This document shows, piece by piece, positions 15,783 to 22,703 of a stretch of DNA of 64,000 nucleotides. The position numbers and the translations under genes are program-made. The stretch lies in assembly GCA_037310415.1 (NCBI GenBank), contig CP147780.1, positions 2,400,001-2,464,000 on the forward strand, read 5' to 3'. Position 1 is the first letter of the stretch; every line of letters starts with the position of its first letter. A model generated the notes under the pieces. The model did not search any database. It worked only from the letters and a program-made list of their open reading frames with translations, and was not told where the DNA came from. This stretch comes from Candidatus Atabeyarchaeum deiterrae. GTDB lineage: Archaea; Asgardarchaeota; Atabeyarchaeia; Atabeyarchaeales; Atabeyarchaeaceae.

Positions 15783-17675
15783 TCAAAACTCGAGGTCATC
15801 AAACCTGATGATCTCATTCGTCGAACCAACCACAACGAATGTGCAGTTGATGTGGTTACCTATCGAGCATATCACTAGTTCCGTCCAGTCAATCGTTGGC
15901 ATGTTTGCCTGTACTCCATGGAGAATGCTCCAAGTCGAGTTGTATGTGGCATTGATGTAGTAGTTTGTGTTTCCTGCAACTTCGTACGACCATTTTCCTG
16001 TTATGGTTCCTCCATGAATCGAGACTCCCAAGTTTTGTTTTGACGACACCAGTGAGATGAAACTTGCGGTGGCTGCTTCAACCCCCATTTGACCAGACAT
16101 TCCTGTGACATCTTGAACCACAACATCTGATTGGTCCAAAGCGTTTACGATTCCGATATATTTCAGTTGCCAAGTGTCTCCCGTTACATAGTATACTGGC
16201 GAGAGCCACGACAGGTAGCTACTCATGTTGTAGAGAATGGGCATCTCAACTACGAACTCTCCCGCTGAAGGCTTGTAGAGTTGACTTTGTATGACATCCT
16301 TTGCCCTTGAGCCGGATAGCATGTTCGACTGTGAGACATCATAGTATCTTATTCCAGTATGGTCTGATATGAAGATCCCAGTAAGGGTTTGTTCAGTTGC
16401 ATATGGGTGCATTGATGTGAATGAGATCATTTCGTCACCATAACGGAGGAATCTAGTGTCTTCGTCCATGGCAACTCTATCGTTGCTCACTGAAATGCCT
16501 ATGAATCCTCCTGCAAATATGTCGAATGATGACCCTCTTCTTGAGGATCCCCAGTTGGTGATCTGGTTTTCAAGCCAACCTTCATCGTAAGGCTGAGGGA
16601 TCCATTTTGGCATACTTGTTAGGTTGTAACTCTCCAAGTAGGCTCCATTCACGGCATCCCAAACGTCAACGCCGAATGCTTGCATCTGCAGTGAGGGGTC
16701 AATCGAATACTTGGGTATGCAGTATACGAGCTTGCTGTCTGGTGTTTTTGTCAATATTGCACGATCGTACTTGTAGTTAGGATCCCGATAGTACGCCTGC
16801 AGCAGTATGTCTTTTCTATTGTTCAGTCCTGTTCCGCTGGCAAGCGCTAGTTCCTGATGCACAAGAAGTGGAGCCTCGTTGGGATCTGTGGCTGATAGGA
16901 CGATGTAGCCGTAAACATGTTGGTCGTATCCTGCTCCAAGCCAGTATTGCTGAACAACAGTCATCGTCCAAACGAGTTTGTCGTCCCATATTGCTATGTG
17001 AATGTTCTCGACCTGAACATTGCTGCCAAACGAAGCCATGTGCTGCTTTGCCTTGGCGTACGCAACATCAGTAGTAACGAGACGGACATCGGATGAGTTG
17101 AAAACGAAGAACGAAGGATATCCAGTGCGTTTCTCTACCATGCTGTCGAAGTAGTTGGCGTTTGCCAGAACGGCGGTCGTCCCTTGCATTACTGCGAAGG
17201 TCAGTGGAATACCAACGAGGAAGACGATGAGAAGAATTGATACGGCTTTGTGCCGTAACACCCCTGGTTTCTCATCTTCGCCTTCCCTTTTTCTGAGCGT
17301 TATTCTTCTTCTGTACCCCTCGCGAACCGTTTGGAACTCGAATCTGCTTGTGTATCTTGCAAGCAGTATGTTGAAAATCTTGATCCACACTATGGCAATA
17401 GCTATTTGCCAAGCAAGCCACTCGGATCCAACTAAGGAGAATACGATCAGCAATTCGACTACCAAGAACAATGACTTGCCAAATGAAAGTAGCTTGCCAG
17501 TAACGCTAAGGCTCTCAGGAATCACCAAAATGATAATCGAGATAATTGCTACTATGTCGAAAAATGCACCTGCACCAGTCACTGCTTTGGCGATGAGGTA
17601 GACAACAAGGAGTATCACCATGTTTATCATGAGTCCAACAAAATAGCGGTAGTAGATTGAGGTAGCTCTTGACAA
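15783..17675 (-). CDS. Hypothetical membrane protein with large extracytoplasmic domain
   Basis: 630 aa. About 4-5 N-terminal TM segments, then a ~450-aa soluble beta-rich region with N-x-S/T sequons. Confidence 0.7.
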   Translation of the reverse strand: MSRATSIYYRYFVGLMINMVILLVVYLIAKAVTGAGAFFDIVAIISIIILVIPESLSVTGKLLSFGKSLFLVVELLIVFSLVGSEWLAWQIAIAIVWIKIFNILLARYTSRFEFQTVREGYRRRITLRKREGEDEKPGVLRHKAVSILLIVFLVGIPLTFAVMQGTTAVLANANYFDSMVEKRTGYPSFFVFNSSDVRLVTTDVAYAKAKQHMASFGSNVQVENIHIAIWDDKLVWTMTVVQQYWLGAGYDQHVYGYIVLSATDPNEAPLLVHQELALASGTGLNNRKDILLQAYYRDPNYKYDRAILTKTPDSKLVYCIPKYSIDPSLQMQAFGVDVWDAVNGAYLESYNLTSMPKWIPQPYDEGWLENQITNWGSSRRGSSFDIFAGGFIGISVSNDRVAMDEDTRFLRYGDEMISFTSMHPYATEQTLTGIFISDHTGIRYYDVSQSNMLSGSRAKDVIQSQLYKPSAGEFVVEMPILYNMSSYLSWLSPVYYVTGDTWQLKYIGIVNALDQSDVVVQDVTGMSGQMGVEAATASFISLVSSKQNLGVSIHGGTITGKWSYEVAGNTNYYINATYNSTWSILHGVQANMPTIDWTELVICSIGNHINCTFVVVGSTNEIIRFDDLEF

Positions 17676-18004: not shown

Positions 18005-18502
18005 ATGAGCCCAGTTCCCCCTCGATTCAAAGTTAACCGGCAGGTTGAAAGAGGAATCCACGCACTCACATCAGTCTTTGTTGGGCTCGAACAATCGAGT
18101 GCATTTATGAAAATCTTTAAGACAGAGCAGAATGTGAGGAAATTTCTTGAAGGCATGAATCTGAGGATTGAAGAGGGAGACGGATACATGTACGTTGACC
18201 CCTCAATTGGACACATAATCGTGAGCAAGAAATATCTCCAAGAAGGAGAAATAGAGATGCTTTACCTAGACATTATACACGAGTCAGTTCACGTGAAACA
18301 ATGGAGTGAGGGAAATAACTTGTACGACACGCAGTACAGCTATGTCGAGAGGCCAACTGAACTTGAGGCTTATGCAGTAGTCGTTGACGAGGCCCGGCAA
18401 ATGGGAATGACTGAAGAGCAGATTGTTGATTATCTAGAGGTTCCCTGGATTTCCAAGAAGGACTTGAGGTTGCTCGCAAAGAAACTAGGGATTGAGAAGT
18501 GA
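18005..18502 (+). CDS. Hypothetical zincin-like metalloprotein
   Basis: HESVH (HExxH) followed by YVERPTELEAY. Confidence 0.65.
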   Translation: MSPVPPRFKVNRQVERGIHALTSVFVGLEQSSAFMKIFKTEQNVRKFLEGMNLRIEEGDGYMYVDPSIGHIIVSKKYLQEGEIEMLYLDIIHESVHVKQWSEGNNLYDTQYSYVERPTELEAYAVVVDEARQMGMTEEQIVDYLEVPWISKKDLRLLAKKLGIEK

Positions 18503-19020
18503 CCTTGGCCGTCATCTTTGGAGGCATGCCATCAGAAGAGTTCCATCTGCGAGATTACCACAACAATGAAGCGGGACTGAGATGACTTCTCTAGTGACTC
18601 GTTGGGTCTGCAATCACCTCCTCAATAAGAAAAATAGGTCAATTGCTTCTTTGCAGTTCATCTGAACTGTGCTCCAGTCAATTATTGCTGCCAGTTGGGG
18701 ATTGGCCAAAATCCCTTTGATCCCAAGACTTACTATTGTAATCCTCGGTCGAAAAACCAACTGGCACGAACAAATATGCATGGCGGTGCTGCACCCACGT
18801 CAGATGATTACCGCAGAGCGAAGAGAAGTAATGCAAGCAGGAAAGCGGAATACTACGTCAGGCAATAGGGAGTGACAATCATTTCCGCACTTGGTCGCGG
18901 TGACGGTGTCGCGCGTACAGATTTACACGAGATCACAATGCATCAACTGCTCCTTATTTATTCTACTGGCAGTTTGCAAAACTCAAAATCTATAAGAATA
19001 GCCCCACCACCTTCATAATC

Positions 19021-19033
19021 GAAATATATAAAA
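19021..19033 (+). promoter_or_regulatory. Putative BRE/TATA promoter of the four-gene membrane-protein operon
   Basis: GAAATATATAAAA about 90 bp upstream of the first ATG (19120). Confidence 0.5.
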
Positions 19034-19119
19034 GGGATCAAGTAAGCATATAGGGAATGAGTCCTACCTAATAGGGGGATTCGAAAAGAAAACATGAATA
19101 ACTAGAGAGTGAACAGCGA

Positions 19120-19431
19120 ATGTCCAAGAAAGTTTCGTTCCCAGTAATGTCGCTAACACTTACCGGAGTTCTATTCATACTTGGTCTTCTTGTGCTTGCA
19201 ATGAAAACGTTCTTGTTCGTAAATCTAGGATTGCCTGCCTCTACTAGCGCGCTCATCAATGGTCTATTCGGTTTCCTTGGTGCGTTCTTCATGCTCTGGG
19301 CTCTGACAAGCATATGCCTACACCCAGACATCGACGACAGCAACGTTAAAGCAATATTCGTAACCTTCACAGTGTTCATCATAATCTTGATCTTCACATC
19401 CGTGGGCTTCTTGACTTTAGCACTATACTAA
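19120..19431 (+). CDS. Small 3-TM membrane protein, paralog A
   Basis: Starts MSKKVSFPVMS; contains FLGAFF..WAL.S..LHPD; GAGTGA ribosome-binding site. Confidence 0.85.
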   Translation: MSKKVSFPVMSLTLTGVLFILGLLVLAMKTFLFVNLGLPASTSALINGLFGFLGAFFMLWALTSICLHPDIDDSNVKAIFVTFTVFIIILIFTSVGFLTLALY

Positions 19432-19449
19432 AAGGAGTGATCTAGAAAA

Positions 19450-19755
19450 ATGTCTCAAAAATTAGGATTTCCATACCTTGGCCTCGGAATCTCAGCTATA
19501 ATCTTCCTTATCTTTGGCATACTATTTGCTACGTTGGTCCCAATCATCTATACTCTCCTTGGTGCATCGAGTGTCGTTCTCGCCGCGTGGAGATTCATAG
19601 GCATATTCCTGACCGGATGGGCTTTGTTAAACTTCATGGTCTGCAAGGATCTACTACCAATGCAGAGACTAATCGCAGCGTTCTTTGCCTTCTTGGCACT
19701 AGTAACACTATTCATCACGCCGCCACTGGTATACCTTTCGTTCACAGTAACCTAA
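19450..19755 (+). CDS. Small 3-TM membrane protein, paralog B
   Basis: Starts MSQKLGFP; contains FIG..L.GWALL.F...QRLIAAFFA; GGAGTGA ribosome-binding site. Confidence 0.85.
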   Translation: MSQKLGFPYLGLGISAIIFLIFGILFATLVPIIYTLLGASSVVLAAWRFIGIFLTGWALLNFMVCKDLLPMQRLIAAFFAFLALVTLFITPPLVYLSFTVT

Positions 19756-19797
19756 CTTCCTTAGCCATAAGGAAGTGAGGGATCCTCCAAGGAGGAT
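19755..19797 (+). repeat. Two adjacent perfect inverted repeats (hairpins) in the operon's central spacer
   Basis: ACTTCCTTA-GCCA-TAAGGAAGT (19755-19776) and ATCCTC-CAAG-GAGGAT (19782-19797). Confidence 0.75.
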
Positions 19798-19847
19798 GGA
19801 TAAGTAAAAAGAATAAGCAGATTCGACTAAAAAGAGAGTGATAATGA

Positions 19848-20153
19848 ATGTCCAAGAAAGTTGCGTTCCCAGTAATGTCAGCTAGTCTAACTGGAATACT
19901 CTACATACTTGCATTGCTACTCGGAACATTAGCAATCCTCGTAGATGGACTTGCATTGCCAGCAGCAACCAGCGCTTTGGTCATCGGACTATTGCTCTTC
20001 CTAGGAGCATTCTTTGGAGGCTGGGCTCTAATCAGCTTTGCACTCCACCCGGGACTCGACAACAACCAGAGATTCGTCGCAGCGCTATTCACAGCACTAC
20101 TATTGCTTGTCTTCTTCAACCACGGCGGAAACACATTCAGCATTTCGTTCTAA
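19848..20153 (+). CDS. Small 3-TM membrane protein, paralog A'
   Basis: Starts MSKKVAFPVMS; contains LPAATSAL..GL..FLGAFF..WALISF.LHPG; GAGTGA ribosome-binding site. Confidence 0.85.
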   Translation: MSKKVAFPVMSASLTGILYILALLLGTLAILVDGLALPAATSALVIGLLLFLGAFFGGWALISFALHPGLDNNQRFVAALFTALLLLVFFNHGGNTFSISF

Positions 20154-20176
20154 TAGATGGAGGTTGAAACGTAGCT

Positions 20177-20470
20177 ATGTCTAAGAAAGTTGGTTTCCCA
20201 GTAATGTCAACAATGATCACGGGTTTGCTCTTTATCCTAGGATTGCTACTGACTACACTCGGAATAGTCCTAGCCGCATTGGGATTGTCTACGCTCATCC
20301 TTGGTGTTCTTTGGTTCATCGGTCTGCTGCTCTTCGGTTGGGCACTCCTAAGCTTCGGCCTCAACCCTGAGCTTGAAGACTACCAGAGAAACATAGCGTT
20401 CTTCTTTGCAGTGCTATTAGTGACATTACTCTTCGGAGTCGGCATTAGCATCTCGTTCGGTTGGATGTAA
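20177..20470 (+). CDS. Small 3-TM membrane protein, paralog B'
   Basis: Starts MSKKVGFPVMS; contains FIGLLLFGWALLSF...QRNIAFFFA; GGAGGT ribosome-binding site. Confidence 0.85.
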   Translation: MSKKVGFPVMSTMITGLLFILGLLLTTLGIVLAALGLSTLILGVLWFIGLLLFGWALLSFGLNPELEDYQRNIAFFFAVLLVTLLFGVGISISFGWM

Positions 20471-20520
20471 GCGTCTAACCATTTACTGGGGATATAGTAT
20501 AGGCCATACCTCAGAACTCT

Positions 20521-20533
20521 CCCCCTTTTTTTT
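20521..20533 (+). terminator. Archaeal oligo-T terminator
   Basis: CCCCC followed by T8, 50 bp after the last gene of the operon. Confidence 0.6.
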
Positions 20534-20652
20534 GGATACTCTTATGTCGGAGAGTCGAAACAATGTACCTGAGAAATATGAGTGGCCTCTGCCAATCTGT
20601 AATACAAAGAAAAGACTTACAGTCTGCGTTTGGGTCCCTGTTTGTCTCCTGT

Positions 20653-21912
20653 TCATCGTATGTATGGTGAGCCTTTTTCAATTGTGTTGTTCAACATCGC
20701 GCTGATCTGTTTGGGCACCGTCTTGTTGTTAATGAGTAAGCTTCGCGTCTTTCTGATCAGCTTCGGGGTGTCTATTTCCATGGGGCAGACTTCTTTGCAT
20801 CTTCCACATTGGGTACAGCTAAAGGCTTGCGTTGCCACCGAGTCGAGGCCCAAGGTAAAGAGCGTCCAAGGAACCCCTAATCCACCCATATAGGTGAATT
20901 CTCCATAATCATGGGCGACCAAGTTCCATACCGGGCAATCGTACAGACACGTACCACACCTTAGGCATGTGAAGGCTTCCTTGAAGTCAGCATCTTGAGC
21001 CATTTTTCTCCTTCCGTTGTCAAGCAGGATTACGTCTATCTCGGCTGGTCCAGCTGCAGGTTTCACTGAGAGCCTTTCTATATCCGAGCTGCTAGATATT
21101 CCCATTATCTGAGTTATGTACTGAGTAGTTGCATGACCCGTTGTGTAGAGTGGCATAACCTGACAGTAGAGATTAGCCGTGTCACGATCTGGCATGACCT
21201 TGTCTATGCCTGCTATAATGATGTGTTTCTCAGGCAACGATGTGACTAACCGATCATTGCCCTCGTTCGTTACCAAGTAGACGGTTCCAGTATCAGCTGT
21301 GATTGCATTCGCGCCTGAGACAGCAACTTTGGACTTGATAGATTTCTCCCGGATGAAATCTCTTACGAAGGCAACTAAGACGTTGGGATCTGGCGGCAGT
21401 TTTCTTCCTGCAAGCTTGCTGAAGTACTCCGCGAACACTTCTTTCGGAACTGAGATAGAGACTCCAGTCGGATGAGCCGCCTTTCTGTGTGCAACTTGCA
21501 GCAGCACTGCGCCCACATCGGTTTCCCAAATCTCTATTCCGTGTTCTTCGAGGAACTCGTTCAAACCTATTTCTTCGGTTGTTAGACTCTTAACTTTTGT
21601 TACAAGTTTCTCATTGCCGATAAGCTCGAGTGTCTTGCTGCAGGCTTCATGTGCGTCCTTTGCTTGGTAGACTTTCATTCCATTTTCTTGCATGATCTCG
21701 ACGGCTTTCTTGATATTCTCTTCGAGATGGTCGAGCGCTTCTCTTCTTCGGTTCTTCAGCTCCTTTGCCAAGTCTTGGATGTTTGTCACACGTTTAAGCC
21801 ATGTTTCTTTCCTAACTCTGTAGTTGGTTATCGCTTTCTCGACAGCGGTCCGAAGGAACGGGTCGTTCGCATCCTTAAGCAACTTCTGATAATATGAATC
21901 GAAATCAGCCAT
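20653..21912 (-). CDS. LutB/LldF-like protein (LUD domain plus 4Fe-4S dicluster)
   Basis: KVKSLTTEEIGLN, ETDVG, VTNEGN, LLDNGRR, CLRCGTCLYDCP, CTQCGRCKEVCP. Confidence 0.88.
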   Translation of the reverse strand: MADFDSYYQKLLKDANDPFLRTAVEKAITNYRVRKETWLKRVTNIQDLAKELKNRRREALDHLEENIKKAVEIMQENGMKVYQAKDAHEACSKTLELIGNEKLVTKVKSLTTEEIGLNEFLEEHGIEIWETDVGAVLLQVAHRKAAHPTGVSISVPKEVFAEYFSKLAGRKLPPDPNVLVAFVRDFIREKSIKSKVAVSGANAITADTGTVYLVTNEGNDRLVTSLPEKHIIIAGIDKVMPDRDTANLYCQVMPLYTTGHATTQYITQIMGISSSSDIERLSVKPAAGPAEIDVILLDNGRRKMAQDADFKEAFTCLRCGTCLYDCPVWNLVAHDYGEFTYMGGLGVPWTLFTLGLDSVATQAFSCTQCGRCKEVCPMEIDTPKLIRKTRSLLINNKTVPKQISAMLNNTIEKGSPYIR

Positions 21913-21953
21913 TGACCTTTCTTCCTCCTTATGCAGTCAAGTCCCTCGCTTCC

Positions 21954-22703
21954 TTACCACTCTTCTTCTCCTGTCAGTCTCCTGTAGATATAGGTACTAA
22001 GATCAAGAACCTGAATCTCCTTGCCAGTCTCTGCCTCTCTTCGAGATGCGCCCACTGTTAAGTTGAACACACATGATGGGCAGGCAGTTATGAGTTTGCT
22101 CACGCCTAGGGGTTCAATATCCTTCCGAATCCTGTTTTCAGCCATCTTCACAGAGAATTCTGGTTCGATCGCAAACATCGCGCCACCAGCTCCACAACAC
22201 CTTGATTCGACTCTAGTTGCCTGGGGCTCGACTAGTTCTGCCACTCTTGCTATTACTTTCCTGGGTGCTTCATATTCTCCAGCGAGTCTCCCCAATTCAC
22301 ATGGGTCATGATACGATACTTTCTCCTTCGTCGTGTCCTTGAAGTCCAGCTTCTCTATGTTCTCTGCCAAGATCTGGGACATGTGCTGCACTTTCGGTAT
22401 TCTTAGCCCGAGTTCAGGGTATTCTAGTGCAAGGACTCTATAACAACCAGCACATTCGGTTGCGATGAGATCAACCTTAGCCGAATTGAAGGCCTGAGTA
22501 TTCTTCCTAGCGATTTTCAGTGCATTCTCTTTGTCACCCGTCAGTAGTAGCGGGTCGCCGCAGCACCATTCGTTCTCAAGCCTCTTCACACTTAGACCTA
22601 TTCTTTTCAGTAGTTCTACGTGTTTGCCAATATCTTCGGAGAAACGGGCTCTAGCGGTGCAACCAGCGAAGTATAAGACAGTCTTAGGCATTTGCGAAGG
22701 CAC
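21954..22703 (-). CDS. Fe-S oxidoreductase with two CCG domains (LutA/GlcF/HdrD-like)
   Basis: YFAGC, EWCCG, ECAGC, YHDPCELGR, CCGAGG, TACPSC. Confidence 0.88.
   Translation of the reverse strand: MPSQMPKTVLYFAGCTARARFSEDIGKHVELLKRIGLSVKRLENEWCCGDPLLLTGDKENALKIARKNTQAFNSAKVDLIATECAGCYRVLALEYPELGLRIPKVQHMSQILAENIEKLDFKDTTKEKVSYHDPCELGRLAGEYEAPRKVIARVAELVEPQATRVESRCCGAGGAMFAIEPEFSVKMAENRIRKDIEPLGVSKLITACPSCVFNLTVGASRREAETGKEIQVLDLSTYIYRRLTGEEEW

Follow-up and report, generated by a model that had tools for sequence, protein, structure and literature searches.

Several groups of small membrane proteins are close enough in build to serve as a comparison for the locus described here. SemiSWEET dimers, the MPC1/MPC2 heterodimer, and the VTC polyphosphate channel, which has five DUF202 domains, are composed of parallel three-helix protomers. 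FrdC/FrdD and SdhC/SdhD are hydrophobic, paralog-like proteins of ~115-130 amino acids (aa) with three helices each that act only as a hetero-oligomer; they are co-transcribed with their enzyme and carry heme or quinone ligands. Ihomp1/Imp1227 of Ignicoccus and MamGFDC/MmsF of magnetosome membranes are tiny, hydrophobic, lineage-restricted, and strongly expressed proteins whose oligomers dominate the membranes that hold them, and mamGFDC is an operon of four small membrane proteins. Here we describe a four-gene unit of the Asgard archaeon Candidatus Atabeyarchaeum deiterrae, located at 19120-20470 (+) in a window of 64,000 nucleotides (nt) that spans bases 2,400,001-2,464,000 of the host genome, a single contig of 2,756,679 bp (CP147780.1). 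The unit is a real, self-contained operon specific to Atabeyarchaeia, and its four paralogous products, predicted to be three-helix membrane proteins, form a family far from everything known. We tentatively read them as paired subunits of a bulk membrane "proteolipid".

The four proteins are like SemiSWEET, MPC, and VTC (DUF202) protomers in size, in their three predicted helices of parallel orientation, and, as we propose, in functioning through homo- or hetero-oligomers of paralogs. They differ in having no sequence match to these families (signature motifs were not compared singly), in a structural similarity no closer than that to generic helical bundles, and in the absence of conserved polar residues that would form a pathway. 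With FrdC/FrdD and SdhC/SdhD they share the design of two small three-helix subunits, and genes for Fe-S proteins adjoin the locus here too; however, the unit has its own transcript, which is convergent to the Fe-S genes, and its products show no sequence match and conserve neither a His nor a polar ligand within the membrane. The likeness to Ihomp1/Imp1227 and MamGFDC/MmsF is that of tiny, lineage-restricted hydrophobic proteins, encoded in the case of mamGFDC by a four-gene operon as well, but there is no homology, membrane abundance and oligomerization are only proposed for the present family, and Atabeyarchaeia are not known to have a special membrane or compartment. Subunits such as NuoK/MrpC, MrpF/G, and ATP synthase c/K are also ~100 aa long and hydrophobic, have two or three helices, and sometimes occur as several paralogs, whereas the membrane-embedded carboxylates that define them are absent from the four proteins. 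Archaeal type IV pilins resemble them in a short Lys-rich N-terminus followed by a small residue and a hydrophobic stretch; these pilins consist of one helix and a β-domain, in contrast to three membrane helices here, and no assembly genes are found at this locus.

The unit consists of four open reading frames (ORFs) arranged head to tail: gene A (gene 1; 19120..19431, +, 103 aa), gene B (gene 2; 19450..19755, +, 101 aa), which lies 18 nt 3' of A, gene A' (gene 3; 19848..20153, +, 101 aa), and gene B' (gene 4; 20177..20470, +, 97 aa), which lies 23 nt 3' of A'. Each product has three predicted transmembrane (TM) helices. An earlier sequence-only reading of this DNA had described four tandem hydrophobic paralogs of 97-103 aa with a shared start and a WAL motif, and the ORFs are indeed present and align end to end. 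Identity to A is 24% for B, the most diverged paralog, 48% for A', and 41% for B'. Sixteen columns of the four-paralog alignment are invariant, including M1, S2, K4, F7, P8, and W-A-L, and all four proteins have the start MS(K/Q)K(V/L)xFP and a GWAL motif. Loop 1 of gene A ranges from 5 to 17 aa across orthologs. The near-identical 5' DNA that had been pointed out in genes 1 and 3 is a 66-nt direct repeat (80%), with one base differing in the first 33 coding nt, and the starts of genes 1, 3, and 4 together make up a 66-nt direct-repeat family. The host genome holds no copies of the family other than these four.

In a tree of 167 distinct sequences, the family falls into four groups by gene position, with groups 1 and 2 at 99% support, and the four positions are four ancient orthologous groups. 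The same tree separates genes 1 and 3 from genes 2 and 4 with a Shimodaira-Hasegawa-like approximate likelihood ratio test (SH-aLRT) value of 97. The duplication of an A-B pair is therefore older than the divergence of the sampled lineages, none of the four copies having been lost afterwards, which agrees with the history that the sequence-only reading had proposed. All four genes are under purifying selection: the ratio of nonsynonymous to synonymous divergence (dN/dS) ranges from 0.18 to 0.33 at dS ~1 for each gene, with values of 0.32 for A, 0.33 for B, 0.24 for B', and 0.18 for A', the most strongly constrained of the four. At free synonymous sites, genes 1 and 3 agree more often within a contig than in shuffled pairings (39 versus 26.4 ± 3.4), which hints at some gene conversion between them. 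At 19736-19750, the DNA that closes gene B (…SFTVT-stop, TTTCGTTCACAGTAA) matches the gene-start motif TTTCGTTCCCAGTAA (…SFPVM) at 14 of 15 nt; this resemblance may be a scar left by the tandem duplication.

The unit is transcribed as a single mRNA of ~1.48 kb, from ~19059 to ~20540. A promoter with a B recognition element (BRE) and a TATA box, identified by reading the sequence and conserved across genomic loci, lies at 19020..19034 (+; cGAAA-TATATAAAA, TATA box at 19022-19033). The likely primary transcription start is 19059 (+), 26 nt downstream of the TATA box, where two contigs from nanopore RNA libraries carry a primer tail, …GCTGATATTGCTGGG, directly before this position. We take this tail to be the Oxford Nanopore Technologies (ONT) strand-switching primer of the ONT cDNA kits, so that an RNA of the + strand has its 5' end here. 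A second cluster of 5' ends is found at 19072-19079 in short-read contigs of ~40 variants, and Illumina adapter remnants occur at 19074/19075 in fragments of relatives from peat RNA-seq runs. The exact sequence was recovered on the + strand and without mismatches in two wetland metatranscriptome studies, as contigs covering 19059/19076-19872 and 19843-20537/20540, and the break between these contigs coincides with the repeat common to genes 1 and 3. The operon is therefore expressed in situ; a lack of expression would have counted against the sequence-only reading. At the 3' end, the terminator (20520..20540, +) comprises a CCCC arm and a run of eight T (T8; 20526-20533), and the RNA contigs of the two studies end at 20537 and 20540.

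These signals are shared by relatives. The TATA box and T8, which had been proposed from the window as the unit's own, are kept in seven genomic loci and are bracketed by the RNA ends. The promoter (cGAAATATATAAAAG) and 5' untranslated region (UTR) are kept in six of the seven, with the promoter at the same distance from gene 1; in the most divergent locus, L076, the promoter is altered yet recognizable and the 5'UTR has diverged. A scan for bacterial-type promoters and terminators says little about an archaeal locus, and it missed the T8 site.

A scan of public metagenome records recovered 54 loci from two sample series, nearly all of them whole contigs of 1.4-1.58 kb. All four genes are present in the same order and spacing in 42 of these 54 peat-sample loci, where the spacers measure 1-23 nt (mostly 13-20) between A and B, 67-103 nt between B and A', and 21-30 nt between A' and B'. 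The peat contigs start 40-57 nt before gene 1 and end at the T-run, most of them at …GAACTCTCCCC, just 5' of the T7-T8 run seen in genomic loci; unlike them, metagenomic contigs of the same family extend into neighboring genes. About 50 sequence variants of the unit occur among the peat samples as whole contigs. The expression of the operon is probably strong, because ~50 variants from a minor soil lineage were assembled at full length and because its preference for NNC codons (0.84, in the top 0.3% of the genome, against a genome mean of 0.56 ± 0.09) is like that of EF-2 (0.82). Contig depth (~900 on the operon versus 6 on a contig at 16362-17116 in run X2, with the remaining neighbors uncovered) cannot rank genes and was not used as evidence. 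With regard to codon usage elsewhere, the strongest preference for NNC over NNT in the genome is found in cas1 and cas4 (L078 and L086, G000:C1:2320080-2321543; 0.94 and 0.80), which points to a CRISPR locus of foreign origin or deviating composition.

The three TM segments per protein noted from the sequence recur in an AlphaFold2 model of A' computed with 40 orthologs, which places helices at residues 12-35, 39-65, and 72-91 (predicted local distance difference test, pLDDT, 87; predicted template modeling score, pTM, 0.73). Hydrophobic residues and Gly account for 69-75% of each protein. Lys and Arg number ~2 in the N-terminal tail and 1-2 in the loop between TM2 and TM3 (loop 2), which also holds acidic residues, and are near zero in loop 1 and the C-terminal tail. 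By the positive-inside rule, the N-terminus would therefore be cytoplasmic and the C-terminus outside, and each of the four is predicted to be a three-helix membrane protein of N-in/C-out topology. The conserved polar features, namely the MSKKVxFPVMS tail and the TM2-TM3 loop (H/N)P.L(D/E)..QR, are both on the predicted cytoplasmic face, and the parts predicted to lie outside are short (3-8 and 6-11 residues), uncharged, and variable. TM2 carries a motif common to the family, F.G.F..GWAL(L/T)S, and hydrophobicity alternates along the C-terminal tails. Across the alignments of all four ortholog groups there are no invariant acidic or basic residues inside the helices, and no conserved Cys or His within them.

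The family is narrowly distributed. Among 400 Asgard genomes in 33 families, the genes occur in one family, Atabeyarchaeia, where all three genomes have four genes each; one additional Asgard match (E 9.7e-4) is probably noise. Searches returned 112 matching proteins among 5.8 billion clusters and, at 50% identity, 16 clusters among 1.84 billion representatives. No relative of the four proteins was found in 2.9 million viral contigs, and no fused or longer relatives were found, although the latter is weak evidence. Two complete wetland Atabeyarchaeia genomes have been described (PMC11291895), and neither the main text of that study nor that of a second Atabeyarchaeia paper mentions the four genes; further literature searches turned up nothing relevant.

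Comparisons with known families were equally spare. The window proteins have no significant match in Pfam, NCBIfam, or PHROGs, and Pfam scans of 160 orthologs taken singly gave scattered sub-threshold matches only. In PHROGs, three of the four proteins are unmatched and gene A has a sub-threshold match (E 0.035) to a family of unknown function. A sequence profile search of the PDB returned nothing. The most frequent sub-threshold signal is DUF6703, seen in 18 of 40 A' orthologs (best E 0.011) and in none of the other three paralog groups; this may reflect composition or a very remote relative. The sequence-only reading had recognized no family and had singled out small subunits of antiporters or hydrogenases and small multidrug resistance (SMR) transporters as those to exclude, and none of them matches. 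Oxidored_q2, MnhB, MrpF, and PhaG_MnhG profiles have no match at E ≤ 1 among the window proteins; Oxidored_q2 appears in 3 of 40 gene-A orthologs at E ≥ 0.22, far below cut-off and attributable to noise, and a canonical NuoK is encoded elsewhere in the genome, at 901 kb. There is no match to the ATP-synt_C profile and no conserved TM3 carboxylate, and a canonical ATP synthase c/K gene is located at 912.7 kb. Relative to SMR proteins, the family has three helices rather than four, no TM1 Glu, and no match to the Multi_Drug_Res profile. A major facilitator superfamily (MFS) transporter split into four 3-TM repeats was considered as well and rejected, since MFS repeats alternate in orientation and all four proteins are predicted to be N-in.

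Beyond its coding sequence, the transcript contains several conserved elements. A 5'-terminal hairpin (19059..19082, +), whose minimum free energy (MFE) structure equals its centroid (-11.1 kcal/mol, z -1.9), is conserved in sequence in genomic loci, the diverged 5'UTR of L076 excepted, and would stabilize the mRNA. It is followed by the Shine-Dalgarno (SD)-like GAGAGTGA of gene 1 (19105..19112, +), which is conserved at ≥80% in 38 variants and forms direct repeat D7 with a copy before gene 3 at 19834-19841. The 92-nt spacer between B and A' is a paralog of the 5'UTR, in that a hairpin and an A-rich stretch again precede GAGAGTGA. In this spacer, hairpin H1 (19756..19775, +) lies directly 3' of the gene B stop codon, and its pairing is kept with differing stems across lineages (CUUCCUUA/UAAGGAAG, CCUCCU/GGGAGG, and GUGU/ACGC). 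Hairpin H2 (19782..19797, +; AUCCUCC-loop-GGAGGAU), ~50 nt upstream of gene A', pairs an anti-SD-like arm with an SD-like arm; we take AUCCUCC to resemble the 3' end of 16S rRNA and GGAGGAU to be a perfect SD sequence, and H2 might be a ribosome standby or decoy site. The core letters of H2 are invariant in 34 aligned spacers, which leaves no covariation signal, and it folds in the window, L022, and L007. The spacer hairpins come from single-sequence folds (z -1.6 to -2.1, and 0.2 in one distant relative), and RNAalifold found no consensus structure in a B-A' spacer alignment that was out of register; we regard the hairpin elements as plausible.

The 3'UTR has a GGGGA/UCCCC stem ahead of T8 and a motif, CATTTACTGGGGA (20480..20492, +), in which (T)TACTGGG stands 12-16 nt after the stop codon and is kept in ~45 variants; its G-run doubles as the 5' arm of the terminator stem. 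The (T)TACTGGG sequence finds its complement in CCCAGTAA, a stretch of codons 7-10 in genes 1, 3, and 4, and duplexes predicted between the 3'UTR and these genes have a median of -17 kcal/mol (z -2.6 to -3.0), versus z -0.1 for gene 2, which is without the complementary motif. The gene-start stretches concerned (19126-19151, 19854-19879, and 20183-20208, +), which can pair with 20480-20492, also show synonymous fixation: in ~40 lineages, the synonymous sites of codons 3-4 and 8-9 (AAG AAA … CCA GTA) are fixed in genes 1 and 3 and at 88-100% in gene 4, and TTC at codon 7 is nearly fixed in genes 3 and 4. Seven other inverted repeats of 13-15 nt occur in the window, so the complementarity could have arisen by one chance match of two conserved motifs. 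The RNA elements CCCAGUAA and UUACUGGG and hairpin H2 may control translation or stability.

The locus is chromosomal and in conserved synteny with cellular neighbors, including, in the surroundings of its loci, gelsolin and Arf/Ras/Roc GTPases; in several loci, synteny extends to a wider block with a small GTPase and a tRNA synthetase. The unit itself contains no gene for an enzyme or ATPase and no mobile gene, as had been noted from the sequence. Downstream, a LutB-like gene (a LUD domain and two 4Fe-4S, 419 aa) and a LutA-like gene (two CCG domains, 249 aa), both assigned by Pfam matches, occupy 20653..22703 (-). In all genomic loci that extend so far, this LUD/CCG pair runs convergently toward the operon, the upstream side being variable, and the operon RNA ends at T8, 113 nt before the stop codon of the LUD gene. 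Upstream on the same strand, a 165-aa HExxH protein (18005..18502, +) is the neighbor in six of seven genomic lineages. It has an invariant HExxH and downstream Glu residues and is found in the same single Asgard family of 33. Its AlphaFold2 model (pLDDT 92) weakly resembles minigluzincins (selecase, abylysin) and M48 peptidases in fold and has structural twins (TM-score 0.9) in Nitrososphaerota and Bathyarchaeota. A role for it as a processing protease of the four proteins was set aside as a lead only: it lies outside the operon's transcript, and its structural twins occur in archaea that have no such operon. Farther upstream, a 630-aa protein (15783-17675, -), in which several hydrophobic segments at the N-terminus precede a large C-terminal part, has no Pfam or NCBIfam family, and an RNA-library contig covers 16362-17116 within its gene.

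We hypothesize that the four proteins are present in the cell membrane in bulk and have no enzymatic role. With A and B only 18 nt apart and A' and B' only 23 nt apart, translation may be coupled within each pair and give equimolar synthesis, and the subunits would assemble as A·B and A'·B' heterodimers or as a hetero-oligomer of 12 or more helices. Such a complex might organize the membrane as a scaffold whose conserved cytoplasmic face serves for docking, or it might be a simple pore. We favor this reading because the proteins have no catalytic or ion-binding residues and almost no extracellular surface, and we hold the statement as a whole, a hetero-oligomeric proteolipid of paired subunits serving as scaffold or pore, with slightly less than even confidence. 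Several points weigh against it. A three-helix bundle is generic, and the fold is uninformative on function. The codon index is not clean, given that cas1 and cas4 also score at its top, and a high mRNA level need not mean that much protein is made, since it could stem from transcript stability owing to the terminal hairpins. The peat contigs (Ga01877xx, Ga01539xx) are read as transcripts from their end positions alone. Moreover, part of the conservation of the N-terminal peptide may be an RNA constraint, since its codons are also fixed at synonymous sites. Protein production, mutual binding, and abundance in the membrane are all inferred.

The same paired three-helix proteins of one orientation could instead be protomers of a channel or transporter for a small solute, with A·B and A'·B' as two heteromeric units or as one 12-helix pore. 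The helices are rich in Gly, Ala, Ser, and Thr, the F.G.F..GWAL motif of TM2 is conserved, and the membrane domains of VTC and DUF202 proteins are among the structural look-alikes. These matches are, however, no better than those to unrelated soluble three-helix bundles: searches with VIA-align wide and ESM Atlas gave generic helical bundles only, in which the VTC/DUF202 membrane domains (Z 9.5, root-mean-square deviation 4.2 over 93 residues; TM-score 0.76 in ESM Atlas) scored level with unrelated soluble bundles such as SNARE Habc domains and designed proteins. Foldseek found no PDB match below E = 1, with SemiSWEET and MPC outside the top 50, and Pfam profiles of MtN3_slv, PQ-loop, MPC, and DUF202 have no match at E ≤ 1 in 160 members, although a three-helix model may miss a remote relation. 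Since the membrane segments conserve no polar or charged residues that could line a pathway, and since expression as strong as seems probable here would be unusual for a transporter, we consider this explanation unlikely. An anchoring role for the adjacent LutB-like/LutA-like oxidoreductase, in the manner of FrdC/FrdD or SdhC/SdhD, would account for the LUD/CCG genes following the operon in every locus that reaches them, across the diversity of the family, and for a conserved face that is cytoplasmic; membrane anchors made of two small 3-TM subunits are, moreover, an established design. Yet the genes are convergent and belong to separate transcripts, the helices hold no conserved His or Cys for heme and no polar residue for quinone, and Sdh_cyt and Fumarate_red_C/D profiles have no match at E ≤ 1. 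The wider block is syntenic too, so that adjacency may be inherited gene order in a narrow lineage, and we judge an anchor to be improbable.

Two further explanations were weighed. The highly conserved MSKKV(G/A/S)|FP start has a small residue at the position where a prepilin peptidase would cut; the sequence-only reading had noted a loose resemblance to a class III signal peptide and had suggested, among other structural roles, a hydrophobic filament akin to Ced/VirB2 pilins or spindle-virus capsid proteins. On this view, the mature proteins would build a pilus- or capsid-like filament or coat. The genome does encode a Peptidase_A24 (prepilin peptidase) homologue, as one above-cut-off match at 542.8 kb (G000:C1:542782-543099), although it lies 1.9 Mb from the operon and such a gene is a necessary but unspecific sign, and the alternating hydrophobic pattern of the C-terminal tails would suit a filament. 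The signal itself is not supported: position -1 is indeed G/A/S, but in nearly all of 210 family ORFs position -2 is V or L rather than K/R, and +2 is an invariant Pro. Three helices fill each protein, leaving no globular domain and only a few uncharged residues outside, which speaks against a pilin; no assembly ATPase or platform gene is nearby, as a Ced/VirB2 system would have; and a spindle-virus capsid is at odds with the lack of a significant PHROG match or viral-contig relative and with a chromosomal, syntenic locus. With the N-terminal conservation residing partly at synonymous sites as well, this explanation is very improbable. That conservation, together with the conserved UTRs and spacer hairpins and the complementarity of the 3'UTR to the starts of genes 1, 3, and 4, would in turn be expected if a functional RNA were the abundant product and the ORFs incidental. 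This is scarcely credible, as 42 whole contigs keep all four frames intact, together with their length, order, and ribosome-binding sites, dN/dS is well below one at dS ~1, protein motifs are kept where the DNA varies, and a search of Rfam gave no match.

Returning to the bulk proteolipid, a bolder and rather doubtful form of this hypothesis would place the hetero-oligomer among the most abundant membrane components of Atabeyarchaeia, as a lineage-specific lattice or ring that supports or replaces an envelope layer or shapes the membrane, with its synthesis set by the terminal hairpins, the anti-SD/SD spacer hairpin, and the pairing of the 3'UTR with the gene starts. Atabeyarchaeia have never been grown, and the operon offers experimental handles in such an uncultured archaeon: its promoter and the ends of its transcript are defined, and its RNA hairpins are conserved. 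Its four-gene cassette, with 1.35 kb of coding sequence, is compact enough to be synthesized and expressed for structural work. If the cells do make the four proteins as main products in wetland and peat soils, much of their membrane would consist of a family that has no description in any database.

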